In this document: one piece after another, positions 6,763 through 64,000 of the stretch
Numbering within the stretch: the stretch's first letter is position 1
Layout of the letters: every line of letters starts with the position of its first letter
NCBI GenBank assembly: GCA_030390025.1
Contig: CM059431.1
Coordinates: 118,546,001-118,610,000, forward strand
Length of the DNA: 64,000 nucleotides
Direction: 5' to 3'
DNA from: Squalus acanthias
Lineage: Eukaryota
Translations under genes and position numbers: made by a program
Notes under the pieces: model-generated
Told to the model about the DNA's origin: nothing
Seen by the model: only the letters and a program-made list of their open reading frames with translations
Database searches by the model: none

Positions 6763-6845
6763 GAAGCACAGAAAGTGAAAAGGAGATTTATGCAGCGGTT
6801 TTAAAATTATGAATGGTTCTGGTAGGGTGAAAAGCAAAAGACTAT

Positions 6846-7104: not shown

Positions 7105-7654
7105 ATATGTCTTTTGGTTTGGAAGTCAGTTATGAGAGGTGATCAATTTAAAATTGTCACTAAGATAGTGAAGGAAGAGCTTGAGAGAAATTTTTTTATG
7201 CAGAGAGTTGTTAGAACATAGAATGCTTCGACACAGGGAGTAATTGAGGCAGAGATTATTGCATCTTGTAAAGGAAGAGTAGATATTTGAAGCAGAGGAT
7301 GATACAGGGCTAAGGAGAGAGACCATGACAGTGGGATTTGTTCTTGATTGCTCTAGCAAACAGCCAGCATAGACACAATATACTGAATGACCTCCTTTGG
7401 TCCTGCCTGTAGACTTTTATGGCTCTTGCAATGACCTGTAAAGGACAAATACTTAGGAGGTACGGCTAGTGAGTATCCCCACCAACATGTGAAAGGAGAC
7501 AATGCACATGCCTGGTGCTGTACTGTAACATAGCATTTGTCCCTTGGTTGATTTTTTAGTGCCTCATGTATCCTGTTCCTGTTTTACTGTCAATTCTGGC
7601 ATTGCTTGTCCTTCTTTTGCTTTCCCTATTGTTCCTTGCCTGTCCATTTTTTGT

Positions 7655-8295
7655 TCAGACAGTTAATAAGGCTATAAAAAAGCAAACCAAGCACTGGGGT
7701 TCATTTCTAGAGGGATAGAATTGAAAAGCAGAGAAGTCATGTTAAACTTGTATAGAACCTTGGTTAGACCACACTTGTTCTGTGCACAGTCTCCATATTA
7801 TAAAAGGATATAGAGGAATTAGGGAAAGCGCAAAAAAGGTTCAGAAGAAGGATTCCAGAACTGTGAGGTTATAAGAATCAGGAAATATTGAACAGGCTGG
7901 ACTCTTTTCTCCAGGAAAAAGAAGGCTGAGGGTTGACCTGATAGAGGTCTTTAAAATTATGAAGGGGTTCGATAGTGTAGATGTAAATGTTTCCACTTGT
8001 CAGGGAGACCAAAACTAGAGGCCATAAATATAAGATAGTCACTAAAAATCGAATAGGGAATACAAGAGAAACTTTTTTACCTAGAAAGTGGTAAGAATGT
8101 GGAACGCACTACCGCAAGGAGTATTTGAGGCAAATAGTGTTGTTGCATTTAAGGGGAAGCTAGATAGACACATGAGGGAGAAAGGAATAGAAGGATATGC
8201 GGATAGGGTTTGATGGAGAGGGGTGGGAGGAGGCTCTTGTGGAGCATAAACACCGGCTTAGACCAGTCGGGCTGAATGGTCTGTTTCTGTGCTGA
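7655..8295 (+). mobile_element. CR1 LINE 3' fragment
   Basis: LYRTLVRPHL and RRLRVDLIEVFKI motifs and CR1 3' UTR. Confidence 0.8.
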
Positions 8296-8971
8296 GACTC
8301 GATTTAACTCAATGTAACTGTGATTCTGATCAGACCCACCATCTTAATCAAGTAAGCTCTGACTAAAATATGTCATCTACTCATATCTTCCCTACTACCA
8401 ACTTTTTTTTAAAGGACATTGGATTTTTGTGGTTCTTTCACATGCCTTCTCAAGCAGCTGTATTCCTCAACTTAGAAGCACTGCTTGTGGCCTTCCTGTA
8501 CTATTGCTCCACCTAGGAACTGTAAAATCTTGGAAGGTGCCACTTGCCTTGGATATGATAAATCTTCAATAAGTCACATTTACACATTGGTCACCACGGA
8601 TAGCACACATGCAGCTGCATTAATGTAGAAATCAAAATGATACTATTGGAATGTTTTATTTCCCCTAACCTTTTATTGAAAATAAGACTAGCCCAGAAAA
8701 AAGAAGGAACAGTTGACACCTTGATGAGTAGGTAGAGGTTGTTTGTTCAATTTGCCATGAAGTTCAAATGCAAAATCAATCAATCAATTGCCATCATGAC
8801 AGTAGAAATACAAAACATCATTTTGAGTCAAATCACACTGGTTCTGAGGCAAACTATCCAAGAGGTTCTCAATTGAAAACGTAGAAAATTAACTCTAGCA
8901 GTTGGTTTCAATCATTGCTACAATGTGCTAATGCATTAAGTAGCCAGTATCATGCTACAGATACATTCCTA

Positions 8972-9133
8972 GGCTGGGAAATTTTTCAGAACTGCTCTCG
9001 CTCTGCTTCACCAAGTTACTTCACCAAAGGTCTGATGGAAAAACCCATTTACGCTCATAAAAGGGGTTTCTGCCACACTTCCGGCAAAGTAACACCGGCG
9101 GAGCAGGAGCAGCTCCAAGCGATGTCCTGGATC
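8972..9133. mobile_element. ~160 bp palindromic MITE (same family as 47534-47688)
   Basis: Inverted arms, similar to the copy at 47.5 kb. Confidence 0.55.
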
Positions 9134-9479
9134 TAGAAATTGTAACCTAATGAAACGTAGGAAATGTTCCAGTGATAAAACTTGTAAAACAATAGCTACA
9201 GTAATTCTCTTGGCGCTCTTGGTAAAGAACAAAAAAATAATCACTCATTCTAGATATACAGTAATTGCAAGTTGTGATAGCAGGTGGTCTGATGAATCCC
9301 AAGAAAGGATTACCAATTAACAAACAGACCCATCTGTCCTATGTCAACACTTTCATCAATTGGACATTCTGCCTGGGGATAAATGCAATTAGCAGCAATC
9401 ACATGTAAAAAAGAGCAAACGTTTCTCTTTTGCAATTGATTTATAAAGTGATATTCATGACATTGCTTAATTTTGTAGG

Positions 9480-11159: not shown

Positions 11160-11897
11160 GGCCCGAAAATTAGACCTAATACGCGAGAGTACGCACTGTG
11201 TACTCTCGCGTTTTAGGTCTCCAATTGCCGGTTTCCAGCATGCACTGCGCATGCGCGGGAAACCGGCACTTCGTGAATTCAAAAGGGGGCGGTTCCTAAG
11301 TGAACCGCGTGCGCGCTACAGGCTGCGCGCACGCAGTGCACTTAGTGCTTTGAACGCGCAGGTAAGCATGGAAGATTTTACACATAAAGAAAGGAGGCGT
11401 AAGACCCTCTTTTAACAAGGTAAGTAGTTAATTATTATTTTAATTTTTTTTCAACAGGTTTATCTTTTTTAGAGACTTTAAAGAAAGGTAAGTTTATTTT
11501 TATAACTTTTAAAAAGATTTAAATTTTTTCAAAAATTTAATTTTTTGTTTAATGTGGTTAATTTATTTAACTATACTTATTTTATTAATGTGATGGCTTT
11601 TTTTAAATTTAATTGAGGTTTAGCTGTTCTTTTGGGGGGGTATAGTATTCATAGCTTTGACAGGTCTTCCTGTCAAAACTATGAATGAAAGATGGTGTGC
11701 TGCCATTGGCTCTAACTGAATCACGTGATCCCAGAGCTCGCACGAACTAATTGCGTCTCTGGGTCACGCAAGCACTGCACAGCTGCAGTCTTGAAACTAA
11801 AGTTCGTGTGGGCCCGGAGGAAAAAGGTAGGCGCGGAGTGAGATATCGCGGGGAAGCCTTACCCCCGCATGAACACTCAGTGTTTAATTTCTGGGCC
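11160..11897. mobile_element. Non-autonomous Harbinger-type element (family A), inverted relative to 1620-2382
   Basis: TIRs GGCCCGAAAATTA / TAATTTCTGGGCC. Internal homology to 1620-2382. Confidence 0.8.
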
Positions 11898-14212: not shown

Positions 14213-14667
14213 ATTATTAGAGTTCTATATGGTAACTTCCTTGAAGCACACAATAAAGGCAAGTTGTCTTTTATGCAGTTAGTCAACATATTGGGCCGGG
14301 TTTCGCAGGTGGAGGCGTACCTCCGGAGTATGCCTCCGACCTGAAAAAAAATCCGAACCTACCTGCAAGGCTCCTGGGCTTCGGAGACTTCAGGTCCTAG
14401 GCCTGCAGGCGTACGCCTGCGTAAAGGCCCACGGATCCCAGGGATGCAGGCGGTTCGGAAGCTGGGATCACGTGGGCCAGATCCTCCTATCAGAAAGTAG
14501 GATTCCTCATATGCTTATGAGGATTCCATTTACGAACGGGATCCTCATTAGCCTATGAGGAATCCTCAAGTAATTAAATAATTTACACAACTGAATAAAA
14601 ATAAATGTTCCCATTTTCACATTTAATTAAAAGTCGCTTTAATGAATCATTTGCAAAAAAAATACAA

Positions 14668-24435: not shown

Positions 24436-25794
24436 ATATCTACTATAACCCCACTGACTCTCACAGCTACCTTGATTACACTTTGACATGAATCTTGTCA
24501 TTCATGTGGAAATGACTTATGAAATAATACTGGGCAGCCTGCTGGTGGCGCTGTCCAGGGAGAGTATAAATACTCGGGCATGGGCCCAGCTTGCTCAGGA
24601 CATTCTTCAACAGGAACTAGTGAAGGACACAAGTAGACCTCCATGTTGAAAAACAGTTGATTAAAGCTTTGTTTAACGCTTAGACCAAGTGCCTAGTAGT
24701 TTTCTTACATCACACTTCTTCCCAGCCCGCTTCCTGTAAGGACTCTATTCCATTTTCCCAGTTTCTCTGTCTTCATCACATCTGTTCTGACAATGCCACC
24801 TTCCACACCAGTGCTTCCGATATGTCTTCCTTTTAATTCAAACGAGGATTCCCCTCCACCGTTGTTAACATGGCCCTCGACCATGTTTGTCCCATTTCCC
24901 GCACTTCTACTCTCACTCCTTCCTCTCCCTCCCAGCACCACGATAGGGTTCCCCTTGGCCTCACCTTTCACCCCACCAGCCTTCACATTCAATGGATCAT
25001 CCAACACCATTTCCGCCACATCCAGCCACCACCAAACATATTTTCCCCTCCCCTTTCAACATTCTGAAGGGACCGTTCTCCCCGCGACACCCTGGTCCAC
25101 TCCTCCATCACCTCTAACACGTGTTCCCCTTCCCATGGCACCTTTCCATGCAAGCGCAGGAGATGCAACACCTGCCTTTTCACCTCCTCCCTTTCCACCA
25201 TTCAGTGCCCCAAACACCCCTTCCAGATGAAACAGTGATTTACTTGTACTTCTTTCAATTTAATATACTGTATTCGCTGCTCACGATGCAGTCTCCTCTA
25301 CAATGGGGAAATCAAATGCAGATTGGGTGATAGCTTTGCTGACCACCTCTGTTCAGTCTGCAAGCGTGACCCTGAGCTTCCAGTCGCTTACCATTTTAAA
25401 TCTCCGCCCCACTCCCACTCTGACCTCTCTGTCCTCGGCCTCCTACATTGTTCCAATGAAGCTCAATGGAAGTTCGAGGAACAGCACCTCATCTTTTCAT
25501 TATGCACTTTACAACCATCTAGAGTCAACACTGAATTCAACAATTTCAGATCATAACCACTGCACCCATTTTTTCAGACCCATCTTTTGTTTCTTTACTT
25601 GTCCCATTACATCTCCTTTTCCTTGCACCATCAACCCTTTTGTCATTTAATCTCTCCTGCCTCCCAGCCTATCACCGACCTTCCCTTTTGTTCTATACTC
25701 CCCTCCCCCTGTTCCTTGCCACTGTACTTGCTTAAAACCTGTTGAATTTCTAATCTTTTCCAGTTCTGAGGAAAGATCATCGACCTGAAATGTT
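24436..25794 (+). mobile_element. Penelope-like retroelement 3' part (RT thumb + GIY-YIG), degraded
   Basis: PTDSHSYLDYTSS..KDSIPFSQF and YCIRCSRC..GESNAD / DHLCSVCKRDPELPVAYHF motifs. Hammerhead-like motif at 25766-25794. Confidence 0.85.
24484..24712 (+). mobile_element. 229 bp solo LTR inside Penelope element
   Basis: TG..CA ends, exact 5-bp TSD CACTT, TATAAA at ~24566 and ATTAAA at ~24660. Confidence 0.8.
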
Positions 25795-26371
25795 GGGGGG
25801 AATCTTAACCCCAAGTATGAGTGGCTTGGGGGCGAGTGGGGAGTTAAAATAAGTGATTTTTAGATCACAACCTGCAACCCGGTTCCAAGGCGTTCATTTC
25901 TGGGTTTAACGGAGGCGCATTGGATGCCTGCGAGTAACCTACTCGCCTAAGTTGGTGCTTTGATTAATGCCAGTGGGTGGGTACTTATTGCAGCAATTAG
26001 CGTCCTTATCAGTATTAATTCAATTTTACTAACCTTTAAATTTAACATCTCCAGCACAGGCTTCCCGGAGCTCGTTAATCTCGCCAGTGAAACAGAGGCG
26101 AAATTGAGCCGCAGTTTATGCGGGTATTTAAATTTGTGATTGCCCATCTGAATAAAAGTTCAGTTATTACAGCTGGTGTCTTTGTTCCCTCTGGCAAATG
26201 TTTGGCAGAGAGTTCCTGTGTTGATATAGCTTTTTCTCTACTGTGAAGCCTTTCAAACTGACAAGATCTGGATGGGCAGAACGTTGGATGTGTTTCACAG
26301 CACATCAGAAGACAAAGACCTTCACCATCCACGGCAGCGACAACGTGCTGTGGTTGAATCAGCAGGTACAC
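25795..26371 (+). mobile_element. Harbinger end plus start of transposase, running into the minisatellite
   Basis: GGGGGGAATCTT terminus. ATG at 26272 gives MGRTLDVFHSTSEDKDLHHPRQRQR, resembling the N-termini of the other transposases in the window. Confidence 0.6.
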
Positions 26372-29300
26372 TAGAGAGGTGCACAGGATAGCGGTGCACA
26401 GGCGGGAGTTGAACAAGAGAGAAGTGCACAGGAGAGAGATACAGAGGAGAGAGGTGCACAGGAGAGAGGGGCACAGGAGAGAGATACAGAGGAGAGAGGT
26501 GCACAGGAGAGAAATACAGAGGAGAGAGGGGCACAGGAGAGAGATACAGAGGAGAGCGGTGCACAGGAGAGAGATACAGAGGAGGGAGGTGCACAGGAGA
26601 GAGGGGCACAGGAGAGAGGTGCACAGGAGGGAGGTGCACAAGAGGGAGTTGAACAGGAGAGAGTTGATGGGAGGGAGTTGCACAGGAGAGAGTTGAACAA
26701 GAGAGAAGTGCACAGGAGAGAGATACAGAGGAGAGAGGTGCACAAGAGGGAGGTGCACAGGAGAGAGGTGCACAGGAGGGAGGTGCACAGGAGGGAGGTT
26801 GCACAGGAGAGAGGTTGCACAGGAGGAGGTGCACAGGACAGAGGTGCACAGGAGGGAGGTGCACAGAGGGAGGGTGCACAGGACAGATGTGCACAGGACA
26901 GAGGTGCGCATGAGGGAGGTGCACAGGAGGGAGGTGCACAGGAGAAGGTGCACAGGAGCGAGGTGCAGAGGAGAGAGGTGCACAGGAGGGAGGTGCACAG
27001 GAGGGAGGTGCACAGGACAGAGTTGCACAAGGGGAGGTGCTCAGGATGAGGTGCACAGGACAGAGGTGCACAGGAGGAGGTGCACAGAGAGAGGTGCACA
27101 GGATTAGAGGTACAAAGGAGAGAGGTGCACAGGAGGGAGGTACACAGGAGAGAGGGGCACAGGAGGGAGGTGCACAGGAGAGGAGGTGCACAGGAGGGAG
27201 GTGCACAGTGAAGAGGTGCTCAGGAGGGAGGTGCACAGGAGAGAGGTGCACAGGAGGGAGGGTGCACAGGACAGAGGTGCACAGGAGGGAGGTGCACAGG
27301 AGGGAGGTGCACAGGACAGAGGTGCACAGGACAGAGGTGCACAGGAGGGAGGTGCACAGGAGGGAGGTGCACAGGAGAGAGGTGCACAGGAGCGAGGTGC
27401 ACAGGAGAGAGGGGCACAGGAGGGAGGTGCACAGGAGGGAGGTGCACAGGACAGAGGTGCACAGGAGGGAGGTGCACAGGAGGGAGGTGCACAGGACAGA
27501 GGTGCACAGGAGGGAGGTGCACAGGAGAGAGGTGCACAGGATAGAGGTACAAAGGAGAGAGGTGCACAGGAGGGAGGTACACAGGAGAGAGGGGCACAGG
27601 AGGGAGGTGCACAGGAGAGAGGTGCACAGGAGGGAGGTGCACAGGAGAGAGGTGCACAGGAGGGAGGTGCACAGGAGAGAGTTGCACAGGAGGGAGGTGC
27701 ACAGGACAGAGGGGCACAGGAGAGAGGTGCACAGGAGGGAGGTGCACAGGACAGAGGGGCACAGGAGGGAGGTGCACAGGAGGGACGTGCACAGGACAGA
27801 GGGGCACAGGAGGGAGGTGCACAGGAGAGAGGGGCACAGGAGAGAGGTGCACAGGAGAGAGGGGCACAGGAGAGAGGGGCACAGGAGGGAGGTGCACAGG
27901 AGGGAGGTGCACATGAGAGAGGGGCACAGGAGGGAGGTGCACAGGAGAAAGGTGCACAGGAGAGAGGTGCACAGGAGGGAGGTGCACAGGAGAGAGGTGC
28001 ACAGGAGAGATGCGCACAGGAGGGAGTTTCACAGGAGAGAGGTGCACAGGAGAGATGGGCACAGGAGAGAGGGACACATGTGGGAGGTGGACAGGAGGGA
28101 GGTGGACAGGAGGGAGGTGCACAGGAGGGAGGGGCACAGGAGAGAGGTGCACGGGAGAGAGGTGCACGGGAGAGAGGGGCACAGGAGAGAGGGGCACAGG
28201 AGGGAGGTGCACGGGAGAGAGGGGCACAGGAGAGAGGTGCACGGGAGAGAGGTGCACAGGAGGGAGGGGCACAGGAGAGAGGTGCACGGGAGAGAGGGGC
28301 ACAGAAGGGAGGGGCACAGGAGGGAGGGGCACAGGAGAGAGGTGCACGGGAGAGAGGGGCACAGGAGGGAGGGGCACAGGAGAGAGGTGCACAGGAGAGA
28401 GGTGCACGGGGGAGAGGGGCACAGGAGAGAGGTGCACGGGAGAGAGGTGCACAGGAGGGAGGGGCACAGGAGAGAGGTGCACAGGAGAGAGGTGCACAGG
28501 AGAGAGGTGCACAGGAGGGAGGTGCACGGGAGAGTGGTGCACAGGAGAGAGGTGCACAGGAGGGAGGTGCACGGGAGAGAGGGGCACAGGAGAGAGGTGC
28601 ACAGGAGAGAGGGGCACAGGAGGGAGGGGCACAGGAGAGAGGTGCACAGGAGAGAGGTGCACAGGAGGGAGGTGCACAGGAGAGAGGTGCACAGGAGAGA
28701 GGTGCACAGGAGAGAGGTGCACAGGAGGGAGGTGCACAGGAGGGAGTTGAACAGGAGAGAGTTGATGGGAGGGAGTTGCACAGGAGAGAGTTGAACAAGA
28801 GAGAAGTGCACAGGAGAGAGATACAGAGGAGAGAGGTGCACAAGAGGGAGGTGCACAGGAGAGAGGTGCACAGGAGGGAGGTGCACAGGAGGGAGGTGCA
28901 CAGGAGAGAGGTGCACAGGAGGGAGGTGCACAGGACAGAGGTGCACAGGAGGGAGGTGCACAGGACAGAGGTGCACAGGACAGAGGTGCACAGGAGGGAG
29001 GTGCACAGGAGGGAGATGCACAGGAGAGAGGTGCACAGGAGCGAGGTGCACAGGAGAGAGGGGCACAGGACGGAGGTGCACAGGAGGGAGGTGCACAGGA
29101 CAGAGGTGCACAGGAGGGAGGTGCACAGGAGGGAGGTGCACAGGATAGAGGTGCACAGGAGGGAGGTGCACAGGAGAGAGGTGCACAGGATAGAGGTACA
29201 AAGGAGAGAGGTGCACAGGAGGGAGGTACACAGGAGAGAGGGGCACAGGAGGGAGGTGCACAGGAGAGAGGTGCACAGGAGGGAGGTGCACAGGAGAGAG

Positions 29301-32300
29301 GTGCACAGGAGGGAGGTGCACAGGAGAGAGGTGCACAGGAGGGAGGTGCACAGGACAGAGGTGCACAGGAGGGAGGTGCACAGGAGGGAGGTGCACAGGA
29401 CAGAGGTGCACAGGACAGAGGTGCACAGGAGGGAGGTGCACAGGAGGGAGGTGCACAGGAGAGAGGTGCACAGGAGCGAGGTGCACAGGAGAGAGGGGCA
29501 CAGGAGGGAGGTGCACAGGAGGGAGGTGCACAGGACAGAGGTGCACAGGAGGGAGGTGCACAGGAGGGAGGTGCACAGGACAGAGGTGCACAGGAGGGAG
29601 GTGCACAGGAGAGAGGTGCACAGGATAGAGGTACAAAGGAGAGAGGTGCACAGGAGGGAGGTACACAGGAGAGAGGGGCACAGGAGGGAGGTGCACAGGA
29701 GGGAGGTGCACAGGAGAGAGGTGCACAGGAGGGAGGTGCACAGGAGAGAGGTGCACAGGAGGGAGGTGCACATGACAGAGGGGCACAGGAGAGAGGTGCA
29801 CAGGAGGGAGGTGCACAGGACAGAGGGGCACAGGAGGGAGGTGCACAGGAGGGACGTGCACAGGACAGAGGGGCACAGGAGGGAGGTGCACAGGAGAGAG
29901 GGGCACAGGAGAGAGGTGCACAGGAGAGAGGGGCACAGGAGAGAGGGGCACAGGAGGGAGGTGCACAGGAGGGAGGTGCACAGGAGAGAGGGGCACAGGA
30001 GGGAGGTGCACAGGAGAAAGGTGCACAGGAGAGAGGTGCACAGGAGGGAGGTGCACAGGAGAGAGGTGCACAGGAGAGATGCGCACAGGAGGGAGGTTCA
30101 CAGGAGAGAGGTGCACAGGAGAGATGGGCACAGGAGAGAGGGACACATGTGGGAGGTGGACAGGAGGGAGGTGGACAGGAGGGAGGTGCACAGGAGGGAG
30201 GGGCACAGGAGAGAGGTGCACGGGAGAGAGGTGCACGGGAGAGAGGGGCACAGGAGAGAGGGGCACAGGAGGCAGGTGCACGGGAGAGAGGGGCACAGGA
30301 GAGAGGTGCACGGGAGAGAGGTGCACAGGAGGGAGGGGCACAGGAGAGAGGTGCACGGGAGAGAGGTGCACAGGAGGGAGGTGCACAGGACAGAGGGGCA
30401 CAGGAGAGAGGTGCACAGGAGGGAGGTGCACAGGACAGAGGGGCACAGGAGGGAGGTGCACAGGAGGGACGTGCACAGGACAGAGGGGCACAGGAGGGAG
30501 GTGCACAGGAGAGAGGGGCACAGGAGAGAGGTGCACAGGAGAGAGGGGCACAGGAGAGAGGGGCACAGGAGGGAGGTGCACAGGAGGGAGGTGCACAGGA
30601 GAGAGGGGCACAGGAGGGAGGTGCACAGGAGAAAGGTGCACAGGAGAGAGGTGCACAGGAGGGAGGTGCACAGGAGAGAGGTGCACAGGAGAGATGCGCA
30701 CAGGAGGGAGGTTCACAGGAGAGAGGTGCACAGGAGAGATGGGCACAGGAGAGAGGGACACATGTGGGAGGTGGACAGGAGGGAGGTGGACAGGAGGGAG
30801 GTGCACAGGAGGGAGGGGCACAGGAGAGAGGTGCACGGGAGAGAGGTGCACGGGAGAGAGGGGCACAGGAGAGAGGGGCACAGGAGGGAGGTGCACGGGA
30901 GAGAGGGGCACAGGAGAGAGGTGCACGGGAGAGAGGTGCACAGGAGGGAGGGGCACAGGAGAGAGGTGCACGGGAGAGAGGGGCACAGGAGGGAGGGGCA
31001 CAGGAGGGAGGGGCACAGGAGAGAGGTGCACGGGAGAGAGGGGCACAGGAGGGAGGGGCACAGGAGAGAGGTGCACAGGAGAGAGGTGCACGGGGGAGAG
31101 GGGCACAGGAGAGAGGTGCACGGGGGAGAGGGGCACAGGAGAGAGGTGCACGGGAGAGAGGTGCACAGGAGGGAGGGGCACAGGAGAGAGGTGCACAGGA
31201 GGGAGGTGCACGGGAGAGAGGGGCACAGGAGAGAGGTGCACAGGAGAGAGGGGCACAGGAGGGAGGGGCATAGGGGAGAGGTGCACAGGAGAGAGGTGCA
31301 CAGGAGGGAGGTGCACAGGAGAGAGGTGCACAGGAGAGAGGTGCACAGGAGAAAGGTGCACAGGAGGGAGGTGCACAGGAGAGAGGGGCACAGGAGGGAG
31401 GTGCACAGGAGAGAGGGGCACAGGAGGGAGGTGCACAGGAGAGAGGTGCACAGGAGGGAGGTGCACAGGAGAGAGGTGCACAGGAGGGAGTTGCTCAGGA
31501 GAGAGGTGCACAGGAGGGAGGTGCACAGGACAGAGGGGCACAGGAGAGAGGGGCACAGGAGGGAGGTGCACAGGAGGGAGGTGGACAGGAGGGAGGTGCA
31601 CAGGAGGGAGGTGCACAGGAGAGAGGTGCACAGGAGGGAGGTGCACAGGACAGAAGTGCACAGGAGGGAGGTGCACAGGAGGGAGGTGCACAGGACAGAG
31701 GTGCACAGGAGGGAGGTGCACAGGAGTGAGGTGCACAGGACAGAGGTGCACAGGAGAGAGGTGCACAAGAGAGAGGTGCACAGGAGAGAGGTGCACAAGA
31801 GAGAGGTGCACAGGAGAGAGGTGCACAGGAGAGAGGTGCACAGGAGGGAGGTGCACAGGAGTGAGGTGCACAGGAGGGAGGTGCACAGGAGGGAGGTGCA
31901 CAGGAGTGAGGTGCACAGGACAGAGGTGCACAGGAGAGAGGTGCACAAGAGAGAGGTGCACAGGAGGGAGGTGCACAGGAGTGAGGTGCACAGGAGAGAG
32001 GTGCACAGGAGAGAGGTGCACAAGAGAGAGGTGCACAGGAGAGAGGTGCACAGGAGAGAGGTGCACAGGAGGGAGGTGCACAGGAGAGAGGGGCACAGGA
32101 GGGAGGTGCACAGGAGGGAGGTGCACAGGACAGAGGTGCACAGGAGGGAGGTGCACAGGAGGGAGGTGCACAGGACAGAGGTGCACAGGAGGGAGGTGCA
32201 CAGGAGAGAGGTGCACAGGAGAGAGGTGCACAGGAGAGAGGTGCACAGGAGGGAGGTGCACAGGAGAGAGGGGCACAAGAGGGAGGTGCACAGGACAGAG

Positions 32301-34221
32301 GGGCACAGGAGGGAGGTGCACAGGAGGGAGGTGCACAGGAGGGTGGGGCACAGGAGAGAGGGGCACAGGAGGGAGGTGCACAGGAGGGAGGTGCACAGGA
32401 GAGAGGGGCACAAGAGGGAGGTGCACAGGAGAGAGGTGTACAGGAGAGAGGTGCACAGGAGAGAGGTGCACAGGAGGGAGGTGCACAGGAGAGAGGTGCA
32501 CAGGAGGGAGGTGCACAGGAGAGAGGTGCACGGGAGAGAGGGGCACAGGAGGGAGGTGCAATGGAGAGAGGTGCACAGGAGAGAAGCGCACAGGAGGGAG
32601 GTTCACAGGAGAGAGGTGCACAGGAGAGATGGGCACAGGAGAGAGGGACACATGAGGGAGGTGGACAGGAGGGAGGTGGACAGGAGGGAGGTGCACAGGA
32701 GGGAGGGGCACAGGAGAGAGGTGCACGGGAGAGAGGTGCACGGGAGAGAGGGGCACAGGAGAGAGGGGCACAGGAGGGAGGTGCACGGGAGAGAGGTGCA
32801 CAGGAGAGAGGTGCACGGGAGAGAGGTGCACAGGAGAGAGGGGCACAGGAGAGAGGTGCACGGAGAGAGGGGCACAGGAGGGAGGGGCACAGGAGAGAGG
32901 TGCACAGGAGAGAGGTGCACAGGAGAGAGGTGCACAGGAGAGAGGTGCACAGGAGAGAGGTGCACAGGAGAGAGGTGCACAGGAGAGAAGCGCACAGGAG
33001 GGAGGTGCACAGGAGAGAGGTGCACAGGAGAGATGGGCACAGGAGAGAGGGACACATGAGGGAGGTGGACAGGAGGGAGGTGGACAGGAGGGAGGTGCAC
33101 AGGAGGAGGGCACAGGAGGAGGGCACAGGAGAGAGGTGCACGGGAGAGAGGTGCACGGGAGAGAGGGGCACAGGAGAGAGGGGCACAGGAGGGAGGTGCA
33201 CAGGAGGGAGGTGCACGGGAGAGAGGGGCACAGGAGAGAGGTGCACGGGAGAGAGGGGCACAGGAGGGAGGGGCACAGGAGAGAGGTGCACAGGAGAGAG
33301 GTGCACAGGAGAGAGGTGCACAGGAGGGAGGTGCACGGGAGAGAGGGGCACAGGAGAGAGGTGCACAGGAGAGAGGGGCACAGGAGAGAGGTGCACAGGA
33401 GGGAGGTGCACAGGAGAGAGGGGCACAGGAGAGAGGTGCACGGGAGAGAGGGGCACAGGAGGGAGGGGCACAGGAGAGAGGTGCACAGGAGAGAGGTGCA
33501 CAGGAGAGAGGTGCACAGGAGGGAGGTGCACCGTAGAGAGGGGCACAGGAGAGAGGTGCACAGGAGAGAGGGGCACAGGAGGGAGGGACACAGGAGAGAG
33601 GTGCACAGGAGAGAGGTGCACAGGAGAGAGGTGCACAGGAGGGAGGTGCACGGGAGAGAGGGGCACAGGAGAGAGGTGCACAGGAGAGAGGTGCACAGGA
33701 GGGAGGTGCACGGGAGAGAGGGGCACAGGAGAGAGGTGCACAGGAGAAAGGTGCAGAGGAGAGAGGTGCACAGGAGGGAGGTGCACAGGAGGGAGGGGCA
33801 CAGGAGAGAGGTGCACAGGAGGGAGCTGCACAGGAGGGAGGGGCACAGGAGAGAGGTGCACGGGAGAGAGGGGCACAGGAGGGAGGGGCACAGGAGAGAG
33901 GTGCACGGGAGAGAGGGGCACAGGACAGAGGTGCACAGGAGAGAGGGGCACAGGAGGGAGGTGCACAGGAGGGAGGTACACAGGATGGAGGGGCACAGGA
34001 GGAAGGTGCACAGGATGGAGGTGCACAGGAGGTAGGTGCACAGGAGGGAGTTGCACAGGAGGGAGGTGCACAGGAGGGAGTTGCACAGGAGGGAGGTGCA
34101 CAGGAGGGAGGTGCACAGGAGGGTGGGGCACAAGATGGAGGAGCACAGGAGGGAGGTGCACAGGAGGGAGGGGCACAGGATGGAGGAGCACAGGAGGGAG
34201 GTGCACAGGAGGGAGGTGCAC
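26372..34221. repeat. ~7.85 kb 15-bp minisatellite, consensus GAGGTGCACAGGAG(A/G)
   Basis: Directly visible: roughly 520 units, purine-rich plus strand, variant units repeated in blocks. Confidence 0.98.
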
Positions 34222-34510
34222 TGTAGTTACATAGGGATGGATTTTGTCTTGGGGTCGGGTTGGGGTCGTGTTACCCGCATTTTGTGTTGCCCCCCCGACT
34301 CCATATTAATGTGGATGAATGATGCGATTTTAACTTAATTGGCCAATTGAATTCCAACATGTGGGAACCCATGGCCAATGAGTTATTCCAGTCTGAAAGT
34401 CGCCTCCGATGATGTCATCATTGCTGCTGCATTTAAGGTCTGCAACAAGCCTTGCTCCCTCTGCAGGCTGCCAAGCTTTTGGACCTCAAATCTAAAAACC
34501 TGCAGCAGGA

Positions 34511-36413
34511 ATGGCCAGCCAACGGCCCAGGGCTGCTCCCAGGTTCCATGATGTTGCCCTTCAGGCTTTGGTGGATGGAGCAAGAGCCAACAGGGAGGTG
34601 CTCTTCCCCTCCTCAGGGAGGAAGAAGCCTCCCCAGCAGACAAAGGCTGTGTGGGTCCAGATCGCCCAGGAGGTCACCTCTTTATCATTCACATGCAGAA
34701 CCTAGATCCAGTGCAGGAAGAGGTTTCATGACCTTCTACATACTGCTAAAGTGAGTATGACTTTCCCTTCACCCTCAATCTGATCCCCATTGCCTCTCCT
34801 CACCAGCACTCAGCTTTAGCAACCTCTTCCTCCATATCCCACTTGACACTGACATCCATGCACCCTTACCCATTCCCTCTCCCTCTATGGTCACATTCAC
34901 CTTACTATTCGACTATGCAGCCCTCACACTCCCTATAACTGTCATGCTTTGAAAACAACTTACAACACACAGGGAGGGCCCTTAGTCTCGCCAGCTCAAT
35001 CCATCTTTGTCTCCTTCTAAGCATCTATGCTATGGATTCTCTACACTCACTCCTTCAATCTCACTCAAACTCCACTTATCTCCCTCATTGCAGGAAAAGA
35101 GAGCTCACAATAAAAGGGAAAGAGCCAGGACAGGAGGAGGGCCACCCTCATTAGCCCAGCTCACCACCTGGGAGGATGCGGTCCTGGAGATCGTGGGCGT
35201 GGAGGAGGAAACGCAAGTGGGGGATGGACAGACGGGTGCATCACAGCAAGCTGGTGACTGAATAGTGTTCCATCTCTCTCATTGACATTGCATGAGTCGC
35301 TGATAATGAATCTGAAGCTCTAACAGATGGATTTATGATCATCTGCAATATGCAATGTGCATGTAAACTTGGCATCACATCTCTGACTCTTTCCTTTACT
35401 CTCCCACAGGACCATCGCAAGCACCCGTCCCCACTAGCCAGGAGGAAGAGCCTGAACAGACAGACTCCTTAGAGGAAGCTGCAACCTCTGAGGGCGCAGC
35501 ATCAGCAGAATTCAGCGCACCCAGCACCAGCGCAGACACTCACACCTCGGTGGGACCCTCGGGACATAGAGTAGTGTTGTCACCTGGTGTATCACAGCTC
35601 ACAAGTGAGCATCAGCAGATGGTGGAGACAGGGACAGCAGTGGAGAGTCCAAGTCAGAGGGCGCAGGACTCTCCTAGCTCGGCTCAGCTGCATGTCAACC
35701 CTCTGCCTCTGGGTCCATCCATAAAATCAGCGGTGCTGGGACTCCAGGAACAGATGCAGGAGTCTCTGACAGGTTTTGTCTCCAGGGTCGCTGCGAGTGT
35801 GGAGCGAATGGAGGAGTCCATCACTAACATGAGCAGAGCCTTTCTGGAGTCATTGACGCATGAACGCATCACCATGGAAAGGATGGCAACCTCCATGGAG
35901 GTGATAAGTTGCCAGAGTGCAGAAAACATGGTCATTGTTCTGAATAGAATGACATCTCTGGAGGAGCGATGGTCATCTATTGAACAGAGAAACCAGACCT
36001 TCATGGAAGTCCTTCTGAGTAGGACTTCCAGTGCAGATACGGGTCCCCATGGCCCCCCTGATGTGCAGCAAGGTGCTCTCAAGCCACTTGCAAGCGCTGA
36101 GGTGGACCTGACCCATGAGAGGGATGTTGGTGGCACACAACAAGGAGGTGGGGGCTCCTCTCCAAGCGCTCACACTTCCATGCCACTGACAGGTCCTCGG
36201 TCAGAGCCCCAGCAGAGTCCGCACCCATGTGAGATCGGCATCTCAACCCCTGCCCAGCCGCAGGAGCAGCAGGTTCGCAACCCCAGAGGACGCCCGTCAA
36301 AGGAGTCGAGACAGGAGCAGCAACAAAGTGAGCAGGGGGCCTCCACTTCTGCTGAAGCCACAGGGGAAGTACCACGTAGGAGCATGCGTAAGAGAAAGAA
36401 ACTGCACAAATAG
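34511..36413 (+). pseudogene. Harbinger Myb/SANT-like DNA-binding protein, 3 exons (34511-34750, 35094-35253, 35410-36413), one premature TAG
   Basis: GT-AG introns join in frame (phases 0 and 1). RAAPRF..W.QIA..RT*IQCRKRFHDL; KRAHNKRERARTGGG. TAG at 34703-34705 sits where the 45.8 kb paralogue has Trp. Confidence 0.85.
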
Positions 36414-36670: not shown

Positions 36671-37948
36671 CTAAGCAAATCTGGCCAAGATGAGTGCGTT
36701 CCTTGCATTCCGGGCAGCTATGGTCTCGCGTAATGCTGCCGCTGGTTGAGGGGCCTCTGCAAGTTGTTCGTTCTCTCTCTCCTCCTCCTCCTCCTCATCT
36801 GAGGAGGCTATGTGAGGAGCCACTTGGTCCTCCGGCATCTGTAAGCCACGACACTGTGCCATGTTGTGAAGTGCACAGCAAACCACGATGATTCTGGAGA
36901 CCCTGGCTGCTGAGTATTGCAGGGTTCCACCTGATCTATCCAGGCATCTGAAGTGCATCTGCAACAAACCGATGGTTTGCTCGATTATGGCTCTGGTGGA
37001 AATGTGGCTGGAGTTGTAGCTCTCCTCAGCTGCGTTGGATGGGCTTCTCAACGGCGTCATTAGCCACGTCTTCAGGGGATAGCCCTTGTCTCCAAGTAGC
37101 CATCCGTGAAGTTGGTCTGGCGGACTGAATAGCGGAGGCACACTAGACTGGCGCAGTATGAAGGAGTCATGGCAACTGCCAGGGTACTTGGCACAAACAT
37201 GCAGAACTTCCTTGTTGTGGTCACACACCAGCTGAACGTTGAGGGAGTGGAAGCCCTTGCGGTTGACAAAAATACCTGGATTGCGATGGGGTGCCTTAAG
37301 GGCCACATGTGTGCAGTCAATGACGCCCTGCACCCTTGGAAAGCCTGCCAGATTAGCTAATCCAACCGCACGTGCCGTGACACTTGCTCGATCCTTGGTG
37401 AAATGGATGTGATTGTGCGCGATGGCAAAGAGGGCATCGGTTACCTGCGTGATGCAGGTGTGTGCGGCCGCCTGGGAGATGCCACTGATGTCTGCTGCTG
37501 ATCCCTGGAATGAGCCTGAGGCAAAAAAGTTGAGTGCGGTGGTGATTTTGACGGCCACTGGTAAGGGGCATCCACCTGGTCCTCTGGGCTCCAGGTCTTG
37601 TTGCAGCATTGCGCAGATGTCACCCACTACCTCTCGCGAAAGTCGGAGCCGCCTTTGGCACTGCTGCTCAGACATGTTGAGGTAGCTGACCCTCTGTCTG
37701 TAGACCCTGTTTGGGGGGTATCTCCTGCGGCGACGGCCTTCCATACGCTGGCCCCTTCTGTCCTGTGCAGCTTCAGGTGGGTGAGCAGCAGCTTGGCGCT
37801 CCTGCTGTTGCTGCTGCTGTTGGTGCTGCTGTTGTTCATGGTTCTGCTGGTGCCGCGGCTGTTGTTCGTCCTCATCGGATACCCAGGAGGGAAAGAAATA
37901 AATGGCTCCCATGCCTCTGGTATATGTCTCAGTTGAGGAAGCCCTCAA
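36671..37948 (-). CDS. Harbinger DDE transposase (HARBI1-like), open 425 aa (likely start Met at 37912)
   Basis: [38 protein letters not shown] and IEQTIG motifs; N-terminal polyQ and C-terminal acidic tract. Confidence 0.95.
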
Positions 37949-38597
37949 TGAGGGTGGCCAGAGGGGTTTCCCAGGAGGTCATACTGCAGATGGGTGTCAG
38001 GCTCCAAACTTCCAGGGCTGTGGTTATGCCTTCTAAAAGTTCCCCCAGACCTGTGACAACAAAGTCCTGCCACCTGCAATTGATGGCTGATCAAATCTCC
38101 TATTTAAAGGTTGAGCTGCAGCTGAGAGTCAGCAATCCACTTGTGCTCCCGCCAGGTTTCACTGGAGTGTTTCCCATCAGGCGTGCTTCACGTGGGAAAA
38201 GGGTTAAACTACCTAAAATGCTTCAAAATGGCATTACTGAGCCACTTTAGGGATTGTTAAGGGCGTTAATGGCCTCTCCCGCCTCTTGGAGGCGGGACGG
38301 AGTCGGGAACCCCGATACCGATTTTGTCAAAATTGCGTGGAGGCGTGTTGGAGTTGGAATGGGGTCGGGACCCCCGAATCTGCTACTTTAACCCCCCACA
38401 CGCCTCCAAACCCGACTCCACGGGTCGTTCAAAATCCAGCCCATAGAGGCATAATGGCACAGAACAAAGCCATTCGGCCCATCGATTCCGTGCCAGCTCT
38501 CTGTAGAGCAATCCAGTCAGTCCCATTCCCCTATCCCCGCAGCTCTGCAAGTTTATTTCCCTCAAGTGCCTATCCAGTCTCCCCTTGAAAACAATGA

Positions 38598-47533: not shown

Positions 47534-47688
47534 GTGGGGAATTTCCTCGGAGCTGCTTCCACTCAGCGGCTGTAACTTCGGCCAAAGTGCGGTGGAAGCC
47601 CCGTGTATGCACATAAATGGGGTTTCCACCAAACTTCCACCGAAGTTAGGGCAGTGGACCTGGAGCAGCTCTGAGGAAATTCCCAGCT
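47534..47688. mobile_element. ~155 bp palindromic MITE
   Basis: GGGAATTTCCTC / GAGGAAATTCCC inverted ends. Confidence 0.65.
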
Positions 47689-54910: not shown

Positions 54911-55595
54911 CTGTCAATGCTCACGAAGAATAGAGAAAAAGATAAACATGGACCGTTGGTCAGGATTTAAACCAGAGACTACAAGGTACTGGCCTGGATT
55001 TGGAGCTGGAAGCTAAAATGCAGGAGACCATTGTTTTCAGTTAGAAGGTGTCTAGAAAGGAATAAGTAAAGCAGCCCACAAAAGAGAGAGGGCAAGCGTC
55101 TTGTTTTCATTTTTTCTTGTTGCCTGATGAGACAAGTTAGATTGAGTGAAAGAAGTGCGATTTGTTTTAACTGTTATTCTTGCTATCTATAAAATAAAGC
55201 TCATCACTGTAATGCAGCAAATATATCAAAACAAATAATTTGCATGCAGTATAAATATTACATGTCTTACTGATATTGAAATATACAGGTCTCTGTATAA
55301 AATATGTGATATTATCAACCTAATATTTTATAACATTTGCTTAAAATGCAAGTAACTCATTTGTTCTTCCCTTCCCCAAACTTCTTATTCTTAATTATTT
55401 ACTTTGTACCATGGTAATACACTAGAAAATAAATAATAACAAAATGAAAAGAAAGGATTAAATACCCAGATTAAATGGATGGAAAAATTGGCAAACTGAA
55501 CTGTGGATCAGCAAGAGGAAGTATTGTTTTGGGCACCCCATTATAGGGAGGTTATAAAAACAATGGAAAAGGTGCTGTGTAGATTCACTAAGATG

Positions 55596-56732
55596 CCACA
55601 TCTGCTCTGAGGATGCCACCTTCCATATTAGTGCTTCCGGTATGTCTTCCTTTTCCCTCAACCGAGGATTCCCCTCTACCGTGGTTGACATGGCCCTCGA
55701 CCGTGTCCGTTCCATTTCCCGCACTTCTGCTCTCAACCCTTCCCCTCCCTCCCGGAATCACGATAGGGTTCCCCCTGTCCTCACCTTTCACCCCACCAGC
55801 CTCCACATTCAACGGATCATCCTGCGCCATTTCCGCCACCTCCATCGTGATCCCACCACCAAACACAACTTCCCCTCCCCCCGCCCTTTCAGCATTCCGA
55901 AGGGACTGCTCCCTCCATGACACCCTGGTCCACTCCTCTATCACCCACAACACCCCTTCCCCTTCGCACGGCACCTTCCCGTGCAAGTGCAGGAGATGCA
56001 ACACATGCCCTTTTACCTCCTCCCTTCCCACTGTCCAGGGCCCCAAACACTCCTTCCAGGTGAAACAGTGATTTACTTGTACTTCTTACAATTTATTCAC
56101 TGCTCACGATGTGGTCTCCTCTACATTGGGGAGACCAAACGCAGATTGGGAAACCGCTTTGCGGAACACCTCTGTTCAGTCCGCAAGCGTGACCCCGAGC
56201 TTCCGGTCGCCTGTCACTTTAATTCTCCCCTCCACTCCCACTCTGATCTCTCTGTCCTCGGCCTATTACATTGTTCCAATAAAGCTCAACGTAAGCTCGA
56301 GGAACAGCACCTCATCTTTCAATTAGGCACTTTACAGCCTTCTGGACTTCAACAATTTCAGACTATAAATTGGCCCCTGTATTTCTTTATATATATTTTT
56401 TTCTCTTGTTTCCTCACATGGTAGCTGTTAATGTTGCTGCCATCATCATTCACACATCATCTAGAGCCATCTTTTGTCTCTTAACTTGTCCCATTACCTC
56501 TCCTTTAGACTTGCACTATCAACCCTTTTGTCAGTCAACCTCTCCTGCCTTCCATCCTATCACAAACCTTCCCTTAGTTCTTTCCTCCCCTCCTCCCTGC
56601 CCCTACTTAAAAATCTCTCTTCCCTAACCTTTTCCAGTTCTGACGAAGGGTTCGACCCGAAATGTTGACTCTGTTTCTCTCTCCTCGATGCTGCCTGACC
56701 TGCTGAGTGTTTCCAGCACTTTCTGTTGTTAT
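55596..56732 (+). mobile_element. 5'-truncated Penelope-like element (GIY-YIG) inserted in a CR1 fragment
   Basis: CSRCGLLYIGETKRRLGNRFAEH..EEQHLIFQLGTLQPSGL motif; 12-bp TSD TTCACTAAGATG. Confidence 0.9.
56635..56672 (+). ncRNA. Minimal hammerhead ribozyme-like motif of Penelope 3' repeat (degenerate)
   Basis: AGTT-CTGACGA-AGGG-TTCGA-CCC-GAAA-TGTT-GACT: catalytic core boxes, stem II and stem I present. Confidence 0.6.
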
Positions 56733-56878
56733 TTCACTAAGATGTTACCAGGGATAAAACGACCACAGTTGTGAAGCATAATTTGAGAAGTTAGGGCTTT
56801 TTGCATTATAGACGAGAAGGTAAAGGGATGATTTGATGGAGGTCTTTAAGATTATGTAGGGTTATGATCAGGTAAATG

Positions 56879-60151: not shown

Positions 60152-60547
60152 GGGACTGAATTTGCGATCGGAGGCTTCCCGCAGGTGGATGTCTCCGGTC
60201 ATCAAATTTTCTACACATTTACCTGGTGGTCCGGGGAGATACGGAGACTTGCGCTCCTGGGCCTCTCCTGGTAGAAATGCTTGAAGGCCCACGTATCCCA
60301 GGGGCACATGCAGTTTGCAAGCGCCCCTGGGATCACGTGGGCCAGGCAAACAATGAAAGAATGGAATCCCCATTCATACTTTTGACAGTTCGTACATACG
60401 GAACTGTCAAAAGTATGAATGGGAATGACTTTAAAAAATGCACGAACACATGACATTTTTTTTTAAATTACATATATAAAATTAATTAAAATGGCATTTA
60501 ATTAAATATTTTAAACAAAAATTTAATTTTTTGAAAAAAAAATGTGA
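60152..60547. mobile_element. Family A element, left part (interrupted at 60548)
   Basis: GGGACTGAATTT start, GGGATCACGTGGGCC, internal hairpin and AT tract. Confidence 0.7.
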
Positions 60548-61286
60548 GGGGGAGAAATTCAGTATCGCCCCACTTGGGGCACAATTATCGGCTGGGCGCA
60601 AAGATTAGCGCCTGGCGCTAATTATCGCCTCCGACTGCAAACTTGACTTTTATCACCCCTGGAGGTGATTGGAGCACTAAATCAGGTGCTGCACACCTGT
60701 CTTAAGGTGCAAAGGCCGAGGAGCGAGGCGTTAACTCAGAGCGCGGGCGCAGCGCAGGTGCTGTCAGTTAGCGATGGAACACAGACACACTGGCGCCAGA
60801 TAGTTCTTAAAGGGGAGGGTCGATCTTGCACTCCAGCCACACCCTGCTCATTGGAGCCTTGAATCTCGGCCTGGAGAGACCTGTGCCTAAATCTTCCAAC
60901 CAAGGACTATGGAGAAGGTGAGAGAACGAGCTCCGCGCTTCAGCGAGCGGGCCTTGGATGCTCTGGTTGGCGCGGTGGAGCGCAGAAGATCTATACTCTT
61001 CCCTGAGAGTGGCAGGAGGCCTTTGCCGCGCGAGTACAGAAGAGTGTGGAGGGAGGTGGCTCAGAGCGTGTCCTGCAGGAGCATGGTGCCCAGGACCCAT
61101 ATACAATGTCGAAAAAAGTTCAATGACCTCACTCGGGTCGTCAGGGTGAGTGGCTTTTTTTCAATACCTCTCCATCCCTCCATCTCAACCTCACTCTATG
61201 GCCAGAGGGTCTTAAAACCCCAATGCCCAACACTCATCCAACACCTATGGCCCTCTCATGAAACACACACGCACATTCCACACTTT

Positions 61287-61449
61287 GCATAGAGTAAGGG
61301 CTATTCACCTATGGGAGGCACATCAGGCAAGACCATGGCTGCATACAGTAAGGGCTATTCACCTATGGGAGGCACATCAGGCAAGACCATGGCTGCACAC
61401 AGTAAGGGCTATTCACCTATGGGAGGCACATCAGGCAAGACCATGGCTG
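61287..61449. repeat. 54-bp tandem repeat, ~3 copies, in Myb intron 1
   Basis: AGTAAGGGCTATTCACC.. starts at 61293, 61347 and 61401. Confidence 0.92.
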
Positions 61450-62495
61450 TATTATTACTCAGATGCTGTCCTTTTTCTTGCAGGCCAAGCTATCTCATAA
61501 TAGGAGACAGCAGCAACGGACGGGTGGAGGGCGGCCTCAGCTGCAACCCCTCAGCGATCTTGAGGCGCGCGTCCACAGGATTGTGGCAAGCTGGGTGATC
61601 GGTCCCGTCGCCACTGGAGACGCTGACCCCATTCTGGACAGCAATGGTAAGGTCATCACCTTTTTGTCCTCTCTCCTTCCACTTGTCCCTCACAACACCA
61701 GCCTTTGACACTTTCAATCCAACTTACTAAATCGCTGCACTCATTCCTCCCTTACTGCCCCTCTGTCCTCACGCTAAAGCCACTCTTGCACCTCCCTGCT
61801 TTCAGATGGTGATTCACCAACTGAGGAGACAGGCCCTCAAGCTGCCAGTGGGACTGAAGCTGCAGGTGAGGAGGAAGATGAAGGCGGAGCATCAGCGCCA
61901 CCCTCTCCCGAGGAAGCCCATGCCCACACTAGGAACACGTTTTCCCTGGAGGGGAGCAGGGGGGAAGGGTCTGATGAGGGTGAAGCTCCAGGACCCAGCG
62001 GGCTGCAGCAACGCAATGGGGGTAGGGAAGCTCGGGGGCCTTCTCCCCGGAGGGCGAGTATGCCAGCGAGTCCTGCTGCACTGGACGCAGAGGAGGATCG
62101 GCTGATCGCTGAAATGAACACCCAGGTGGTGGACATGCACACTGAGCTCATGGGTGCAGTGGGAAGGGTGCCCGAATGCATTGAATCACTGGCAAGGAGT
62201 GTGGAGCACTTCGCTGTAGCACAGGCGGATGCCACGCAAATGTTTAGTGCTGCAATTCAGTCACTGACTGCCGTGACCCCATCTCTGACAGCTCTCATGC
62301 AGACTCAGATTGAGGCCACGCGAGCACTGACTGCTGCCATCCTCGCTGGTTCGGACACATTTCCCCGGTGCTGTCACCGCACCGCAGCAGGTCAGCAATC
62401 TGTGCTCCAGCAGATTGCTCCAGATGCTGAAGTGCTGCCCCGTGGGAGTGCCAGTGTGTCGGTCGAGCAGGGAGTTGCTGTCCTCTCTCAAGATG

Positions 62496-62700
62496 CGGAG
62501 ATGCCGGTGTTGGACTGGGGTGGACAAAAGTGAGAAGTCGCACAACACCAGGTTATAGTCCAACAGCTTTATTTGAAATCACAAGCTTTCGGAGCGCTGC
62601 TCCTTCGGCAGGTGACCTGACGAAGGAGCAGCGCTCCATAAGCTTGTGATTTCGAATAAAGCTGTTGGACTATAACCTGGTGTTGTGCGACTTCTCACTT
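62496..62700. mobile_element. 205 bp palindromic insertion with two inverted hammerhead-like motifs (probably Penelope-derived)
   Basis: 86-bp inverted arms 62528-62613 / 62615-62700; 13-bp TSD CTCTCTCAAGATG. Confidence 0.8.
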
Positions 62701-62803
62701 CTCTCTCAAGATGACAGCATTCCTGCTGCCACCACTGTCACTTCTCCACTGCACTTGCCACCGCCTGTAGCCCAGACTGCTGCCGCCCATCCAGAGTTGG
62801 TGC

Positions 62804-64000
62804 TGTAAGGGGTTCGGTCGTCGGTGCTTGTATCGCAGCCGGTGCTGGTGCGGGGTTAGGCCTTCGCTGCCTAATACTATTGCTTGCTCTGGTCTCCGGC
62901 CAGCCTTGTTGCAATAAGCACCTGTGAGTGGTTCGACCCACTCGCCCTTACGGTTCTAACACTGGACTTAGGTGCGAGAGCAGTAATGCAGAGAAAAACT
63001 CAAATAGACCCGGTTGAATAGTACAAAATGGAAATCTTTATTGCATAGCGTCCACAATCATGAAGTACATGTCATAGGCGCAAATTAATGAGAGTACAAG
63101 TATACATACATTCATAAAACTTGGTCTAGGGTAATGAGGAACGCACGGCACATCGTAAAAAGGGGAACACATTATATTTATCCTTAATAAAACCACCCTC
63201 CCCTATCAATACCTACACTAATCTAGATTTGTATGATCGGGAAACATGCTCACCACTCGTGATACTTCGGAGAATTTTAAAGTGAGGCACTCGGCTCGTT
63301 TCGCTGCAGCGCCTGACTGTCACGTGTTTGAAAGGGTCTCTGTACCCCACTTGTTTATCTTCGCTGCTCCGGCAAGCAGGCTGGGCTCCCCGTCGTCATG
63401 AAGAACTCGACAGTGCTCGGACACGGTTGTAGAAGTCCAGAGAGACAATCAAAAGCTCACCAGTCAAGCGAGTCCATGAAGCGGCAAGCGAATAAGAGTT
63501 CAGCAGTCATCAGCCAGATAAGAGAATAATAAGCAAGAGTTCAGCCCGAGTCAAGAGTCGAATCAAGAGACCGATGGATATTTGTTCACTATAGTTATAG
63601 TGCTGTGTTCCCTTATCTCCCGCTCAAATCTTAATGTTTGTCCTTTGTGTAATACTGGTGCACAAAACTCCCAGCATGGGGCGATTCTTTCCTTTAATGG
63701 GTTTCGGTAGCACCTTAAACTGGCCAACTACCCGTTAATATTTTCCCCATTGTTGAACCGGCTAGGAGTCTCCCTGACTGGTTTTGGGGCCTCCTCGAAT
63801 ACTGACTTAATCACCCGAGAATGGCTCTCTCATTGTAGAGCCGTGGGGAATTTGCGTATTGATGTATCTGGATGGGCCTTCGATTGCCCAGTACAATGGT
63901 CCTTACTTGTGCATGGAAAACGATTCCAGCACTTATCTCTTGCTATTGTGTCGAATGCAGACAGGTTGCATCCTGTCTTTATCAGTGTTTGCTGCGTATT
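62804..64000 (-). mobile_element. LTR-like insertion, truncated by window end
   Basis: Abrupt break of the Myb frame at TGTAAGG; minus-strand AATAAA at ~63040; layout like 3847-4972. Other end not visible. Confidence 0.5.

Follow-up and report, generated by a model that had tools for sequence, protein, structure and literature searches.

The 205-bp fold-back at positions 62496–62700 of the window (the whole 64,000-nucleotide stretch of DNA analysed here) carries hammerhead motifs on both strands and raises the question of whether it moves as a unit or is what remains of the insertion of another element. The initial annotation offered both readings, describing a mobile 205-bp element, either retrozyme-like or an inverted pseudo-LTR (pLTR) Penelope remnant. 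The last of these identities is borne out: a minimal hammerhead ribozyme (min-HHR) in a pLTR, an inverted copy joined head to head, a tail at one end only and a target-site duplication (TSD) with an empty site are all present. An adjacent inverted, 5′-truncated copy with a 30–40-bp tail at one end is the usual layout of Penelope-like elements (PLEs), as outlined in an excerpt of PMC8557442. We conclude that the focal element is very likely a dead, minimal head-to-head PLE insertion of this already described layout, its hairpin having been formed at insertion. There is nothing unusual in a dead insertion lodged within another repeat; its value lies in the clean record it preserves, from which the TSD, the empty site, the turn and each 3′ end can be placed exactly.

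Two arms of 86 bp each (62528–62613 and 62615–62700), complementary at 82 of 86 positions and separated by G62614, make up the palindromic part, 173 of the 205 bp. The four mismatches lie at 62608/62620, 62590/62638, 62589/62639 and 62574/62654. A further 32 nt (62496–62527) have no pairing partner and extend one arm only; the initial annotation located the fold-back and its 86-bp arms correctly but left this extension unmentioned. In ribozyme sense the long arm (62528–62615), recognized from arm comparison and family contigs as the 3′ segment of a pLTR, lies on the minus strand and ends in the extension, a C/A-rich one-sided tail (62496–62527, minus strand) delimited by the arm comparison and by family 3′-end clusters at 62488–62494 and 62526. 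The tail measures 32 nt, or 36–40 nt if bases common to the target are included, within the published range of 30–40 bp. The short arm (62615–62700, plus strand) is the same pLTR segment without the tail and stops 32 nt sooner, at an end that mirrors 62528 and corresponds to the no-tail cluster at 62526. The arms are joined at their 5′ ends, that is, head to head, and the turn of the palindrome (62614–62615), placed by arm comparison and by the drop in depth across it, lies 3 nt 5′ of the catalytic core, away from the cleavage site and about 31 nt upstream of it. The 1-nt spacer of the earlier description exists as G62614, but because the family sequence continues through 62615 on the long arm, A62615 can be read as common to both arms, without an untemplated spacer. 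BLAST found no second copy of 62496–62700 within the 64-kb window, only the element itself and its own reverse complement over 62528–62700.

An exact 13-bp direct repeat, found by repeat search at 62483–62495 and 62701–62713, adjoins both ends of the element. For comparison with related contigs we used positions 62290–62632 as the reference, comprising the left flank, one arm and 18 nt beyond the turn, and compared four of 24 sequencing runs, none of the 24 being catalogued as RNA although X15 may be: two of contigs (X1, 12,093; X15, 2,477), whose source organism may differ from the species of the window, and two of raw reads (X21, eight reads; X22, none). In X1, 13 contigs from other copies of the host repeat run directly from 62495 into letters matching 62714–62743 (agreement 0.88), with two differences between their consensus and the window over 30 nt; in X15, two contigs do the same (agreement 1) and are identical to the window over 30 nt. 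Since the empty site is found in other copies of the host repeat, the 13-bp repeat is a true TSD, both boundaries are real and a single insertion event is recorded, in agreement with the clean 13-bp TSD reported earlier. The last 4 nt of the left TSD copy also match the family 3′ end, with contigs aligning in to 62492 (n = 101) and 62488 (n = 50).

The host is a high-copy repeat with an open frame (61778–62808, plus strand), recognized from its ORF, from separate translation of the flanks and from high flank depth. The insertion interrupts this frame 30 codons before its stop, and the frame resumes in the right flank. A Pfam search of the interrupted ORF gave no match, while the upstream exon at 60891–61289 is of Myb type (PF13873, E 1.1e-9); we infer that the host frame is the end of that Myb gene, the repeat probably being the last exon of a Harbinger-type Myb/SANT gene. 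Three 54-bp tandem copies (95–97%) lie directly after the Myb/SANT frame, at 61286–61452.

The rest of the window is repeat-rich eukaryotic DNA with a Harbinger-type DDE transposase, Myb/SANT and reverse transcriptase (RT) fragments and a weak GIY-YIG match. The transposase frame (434 aa, 36671–37978, minus strand) matches PF13359 with an E-value of 3.7e-36, and a second copy, 75% identical, is seen at 6–998. Roughly 8 kb at about 26000–35000 are strongly purine-skewed, with very long open frames on both strands, and are probably a simple repeat. Short palindromes without a hammerhead match occur at 47537–47684, 60286–60343, 60366–60426, 14499–14566, 11172–11220 and 1838–1883, and are probably sub-terminal hairpins of transposons. 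A second PLE, of another family and truncated at its 5′ end, occupies 55584–56744 (plus strand), with the weak GIY-YIG match (E 0.0056), a minimal hammerhead at 56640–56662 and a 12-bp TSD at 55584 and 56733. It has an older relative at 24777–25790 (plus strand; 82% over 793 nt) with a hammerhead-like core at 25766–25790, for which a TSD was sought and not found. The end of this other PLE differs from that of the focal pLTR, and no RT/GIY-YIG ORF linked to the focal pLTR is present within the 64-kb window. A 3,967-nt X15 contig carries the focal arm in sense at its positions 55–137 and is a candidate full-length partner element.

The hammerhead assignment rests on published features of min-HHRs, because an Rfam scan of the window gave no family at gathering score and an E-value scan gave no hammerhead model even below the gathering threshold. 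Sub-threshold Rfam matches of hairpin type in the window were rejected. According to excerpts of PMC4209133, the minimal hammerheads of PLEs possess an extra base after A9 (between 9 and 10.1), a G10.1–C11.1 pair, a palindromic 15.2–16.2 and a short helix I. Judged by these features, minimal type I motifs are indeed present on both strands. That of the minus arm (62579–62615) has a helix I of 4 bp, C3 at 62611, the extra A at 62604, helix II at 62603–62591, a palindromic AGCU at helix III and a predicted cut between 62583 and 62582; its core lesion is A6C, at 62608. The motif of the plus arm (62615–62647), for which the arm comparison was used as well, has C3 at 62617, the lesions G12A and A13U at 62638–62639 and a predicted cleavage site at 62645/62646. 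The core lesions of both arms are as given in the initial annotation, which passed over the reduction of helix I to 2 bp in the plus arm. Helix II comprises 5 bp in both motifs. Each single arm is damaged, at different core positions, and the arm consensus is a complete core with all of the published min-HHR features, as had been claimed. A strict core pattern gave seven matches across the window against 4.7 expected by chance and missed both focal arms; a relaxed scan found the minus arm and one unrelated match and missed the plus arm on account of its overly short helix I. Within the family, cleavage position 62583 varies between U and C (27% of X1 depth), with the cleavable triplet kept. 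Each arm has an AATAAA some 10 nt below its predicted cut (62655–62660, plus; 62568–62573, minus).

Folding of the element strand gives −163.7 kcal/mol (z −23), and none of 200 shuffled sequences is as stable, so that the claim of a long double-stranded RNA holds as a prediction: a transcript of the focal element would be a long hairpin, for which a role as an siRNA or ADAR substrate is physically plausible. Forcing the ribozyme folds costs 44.6 or 48.5 kcal/mol relative to the full hairpin, and in both transcription directions the complement is made before the ribozyme. Both focal ribozymes are very probably inactive, given the core lesions, the predicted burial in the hairpin and the report, in the excerpted part of PMC4209133, that even intact minimal motifs gave no cleavage as monomers. 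A6C was considered as a working variant and rejected, since it greatly lowers Mg2+ cleavage elsewhere (PMC7151607, in excerpt) and the motif is here buried in the hairpin; the same excerpt states that other hammerheads retain Mn2+ cleavage with A6C. Nor were the lesions accepted as a selected loss of function, two of three mutation events having struck the core (P ~0.05).

Whether such hairpins move as units is addressed by the family in the related contigs. Among the ends listed for X1, the best-supported 3′-end groups are at 62488 (50 contigs), 62492 (101) and 62526 (41), together 192 of 754 partly aligned contigs, with unrelated flanks (agreement 0.37–0.40). In X15, 34 of 173 partly aligned contigs end at 62488–62494 and, among the ends listed, none at 62526. 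A further 215 weaker loose-end rows lie outside the listed ends. The end of the long arm coincides with the 62488–62494 group and the mirrored end of the short arm (62528) with the 62526 group. At the centre the picture is different: summed depth across the turn falls from 481,022 to 9,338 and 6,801 in X1 (ratio 0.014–0.019, about 50–70-fold) and from 36,184 to 2,153 and 31 in X15 (ratio 0.001–0.06). Eight of the 15 listed joints share the end 62615, each backed by very few contigs and some with the strand inferred, and the inclusion of only 18 nt of the second arm in the reference favours joints at this position. The inverted arms paired with 62615 stop at eight different positions (62516, 62517, 62527, 62539, 62549, 62551, 62553 and 62560). 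Of the other seven joints, two are skips, and five run backward or change strand. One of these five, 62561 to 62492 (depth 333), is a partial direct tandem and suggests that 70 bp are partially repeated head to tail in the family; the joint 62553 to 62609 resembles a deletion between two CAGGT pentamers. In viral and metagenome contig collections the focal sequence had no match; 19-mer matches (two metagenome, one genome) extended over only 22–23 nt and were dropped as chance.

The boundary comparison thus gave a divided answer to the proposal that fixed boundaries would mark a mobile unit: the outer ends cluster, but the centre varies. Movement of a PLE-derived hairpin as a unit cannot be read from fixed outer boundaries alone, and clustered outer ends with a variable centre are what one would expect where the ends are dictated by PLE start sites and the fold-back arises during insertion. 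Because just 1.4–1.9% of summed X1 depth crosses the centre and eight inverted-arm lengths are seen, each insertion most likely builds its hairpin anew, without movement as a unit, and the description of a mobile 205-bp element is not upheld.

The origin of the tandem and inverted ends of PLEs is called unresolved in the excerpted text of PMC8557442. We lean, tentatively and at close to even confidence, towards priming from two nicks at the two internal start sites of the element. A PLE RT-endonuclease encoded elsewhere would have nicked one copy of the high-copy repeat with a stagger of 13 nt, and both 3′-OH ends would have primed cDNA on uncleaved pLTR RNA. The downstream internal start site would give the long arm with the tail and the upstream site the short arm without it. 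Both cDNAs would have extended almost to the 5′ end of the RNA, presumably near the turn and just above the hammerhead; their ends would have been joined with the loss of a few bases and one base shared, the gaps filled, and both cores disrupted afterwards by point mutations. Excerpts of PMC11167929 describe an Anolis PLE in which RT has two internal start sites with the tail between them, the main template is uncleaved RNA and the protein, predicted to form a dimer, cuts and extends both target strands in vitro. Such behaviour would account for the TSD, the origin of one arm from each start site, the retention of the 5′ half of the ribozyme and the position of the turn.

Fold-back self-priming is a serious possibility for the second arm of the same PLE insertion, although we think it somewhat doubtful. 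A single target-primed cDNA would reach the 5′ end of the RNA, snap back and copy itself, and the hairpin would be resolved at the tail boundary. Self-priming from head-to-head junction palindromes, on an antisense template, was proposed in PMC3846280 (in excerpt), and the turn of the focal element is a near-perfect palindrome with one shared base. The arms also agree at all 12 internal positions listed as family-variable, for which the chance is ~0.04 if eight sites were independent draws, the sites being linked; this agreement would fit one template copied twice as well as two RNAs from one donor. What favours two-nick priming is the end of the short arm, which falls at the no-tail cluster (62528 against 62526). 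Two start sites explain that end directly, with a protein that extends both strands in vitro in the Anolis case (PMC11167929, in excerpt), whereas self-priming needs an extra step to halt the copy there.

The target matches the end of the tail over four exact nucleotides (chance 0.004). The hexamer that ends the focal TSD also ends the 12-bp TSD of the second PLE insertion and occurs 44 times on the two strands of the window; because of this second TSD, an endonuclease preference, at which the shared hexamer hints (n = 2), is as likely as primer pairing. For microhomology-primed PLE insertion no support was found in the excerpt of PMC9977147, which gives a median insertion length of 128 bp.

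A more specific version of two-nick priming is unlikely, though informative if correct. A PLE RT dimer, acting at two nicks, would have used two capped RNAs transcribed from an initiator some 5 nt above helix I, and the hairpins would be the trace of that reaction, each arm running from one of the two internal RT start sites to the cap and the G before ACTTC being the copied cap. Behind 62615 there are loose ends in 28 contigs (agreement 0.46), and above helix I the sequence resembles an initiator; a TCACT motif has been noted in A. vaga pLTRs (PMC3846280, in excerpt) and an internal promoter in the Penelope of D. virilis (PMC2377424). Four of the seven filler joints show a G directly before ACTTC, a position occupied by C in the loose-end consensus. 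For two of these four, the other arm could have supplied the G, and a subfamily variant with G before ACTTC accounts for the filler joints equally well. Titles and the openings of abstracts, a coverage that leaves out most subscription papers, contained no proposal that PLE hairpins arise by two-nick priming or include a copied cap. If the reading were true, the transcription start, the two RT starts and the stagger of the nicks could be located to the base from thousands of copies, which would also settle the choice between twin priming and self-priming. Counting such copies across the genome would in any case be a cheap test of that choice.

Outside insertion by a PLE of the kind preferred here, the best surviving identity, in itself improbable, is a family of non-autonomous fold-backs mobilized by PLE machinery as fixed units of 205 bp. 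The outer ends do lie at family-wide clusters, and the X1 depth beyond the centre (6,801–9,338) leaves room for a small number of copies with this centre. Short-read contigs may also under-represent palindromes. Against this, depth falls about 50–70-fold at the centre, where at most ~2% of summed X1 depth crosses (depth differs from copy number), and the listed joints show eight inverted-arm lengths. The 173-nt hairpin would also be a poor RT template, and it would bury both ribozymes by 45–49 kcal/mol.

Distinctly less probable is an assembly artefact, or a single pLTR insertion of which DNA repair subsequently made an inverted duplicate. In its favour, the junction of the window itself is spanned by none of the listed contigs; yet the four arm mismatches argue against an assembly fold-back, a single TSD encloses both arms, and the short arm ends at the family no-tail site rather than at a random point.

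We give still less weight to a non-LTR retrozyme monomer or dimer replicating via circular RNA, although the element is short, lacks an ORF and has a type I hammerhead, and the family includes the one partial direct tandem joint (62561 to 62492). Retrozymes are reported, in an excerpt of bioRxiv 10.64898/2026.07.22.740005, to be non-autonomous PLE derivatives, and their non-LTR class is defined there by tandem repeats and two consecutive complete ribozymes. The focal ribozymes lie on opposite strands and both are damaged, there is no tandem direct repeat, and neither the ends (62496, 62700) nor the turn (62614) fall on the cleavage sites (62583/62582 and 62645/62646); the retrozyme-like unit suggested earlier is not supported by these results. 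Least credible of all is a DNA-transposon MITE or foldback element, which the short, non-coding palindrome inside a probable Harbinger gene might suggest, since the termini are not inverted repeats (32 nt are unpaired on one side), a PLE-type ribozyme is present in the arms, which adjoin each other, the family ends at two staggered sites, and a 13-bp TSD is unlike the 3-bp TSD of Harbinger elements.

Among known systems, L1 twin priming reportedly leaves an inverted segment inside one TSD, which is attributed to priming from both nicks, and the focal element likewise has its inverted segment within a single TSD. L1 twin priming is said to yield non-overlapping inverted parts of one RNA, whereas in the focal element the same stretch occurs twice. 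With non-LTR retrozymes (bioRxiv 10.64898/2026.07.22.740005, in excerpt) the element shares its short length, lack of coding capacity, type I hammerhead and PLE derivation; retrozymes are head-to-tail with complete ribozymes, in contrast to the head-to-head arrangement with damaged ones seen here. The extra nucleotide, the G10.1–C11.1 pair, the palindromic 15.2–16.2 and the short helix I are those of metazoan PLE hammerheads (Cervera and De la Pena 2014, PMC4209133, in excerpt). The dual motifs of S. mansoni in the same excerpt lie on opposite strands 100–700 bp apart and have a helix II of 7–8 bp; those of the focal element are a few bases apart, have core lesions and have a helix II of 5 bp.

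The closest likeness in layout is to PLEs of A. vaga, for which excerpts of PMC3846280 describe inverted pLTRs, mostly head to head, of which one bears a 31-bp tail, along with palindromes at the junctions and TSDs of 8–10 bp. Like Pen2a and Pen3a (PMC3846280; scheme in PMC8557442, Fig. 2), the focal element has an adjacent inverted pLTR, a palindromic junction, a 30–40-bp tail at one end only, a TSD and a hammerhead in the pLTR. It differs from them in having neither an ORF nor a direct pLTR between the arms and only ~120 nt of pLTR, and its TSD is 13 bp rather than 8–10 bp. As in PAc, the Poseidon-type PLE of Anolis carolinensis (PMC11167929, in excerpt), there are two 3′ ends a tail apart and the 5′ part of the ribozyme is retained, as on an uncleaved template. 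The distance from the tail end to the start of helix II is 108–116 nt in the focal element against 111–118 nt in PAc; priming in PAc is reported to be non-homologous to the cut DNA, whereas here four target nucleotides match the end of the tail.
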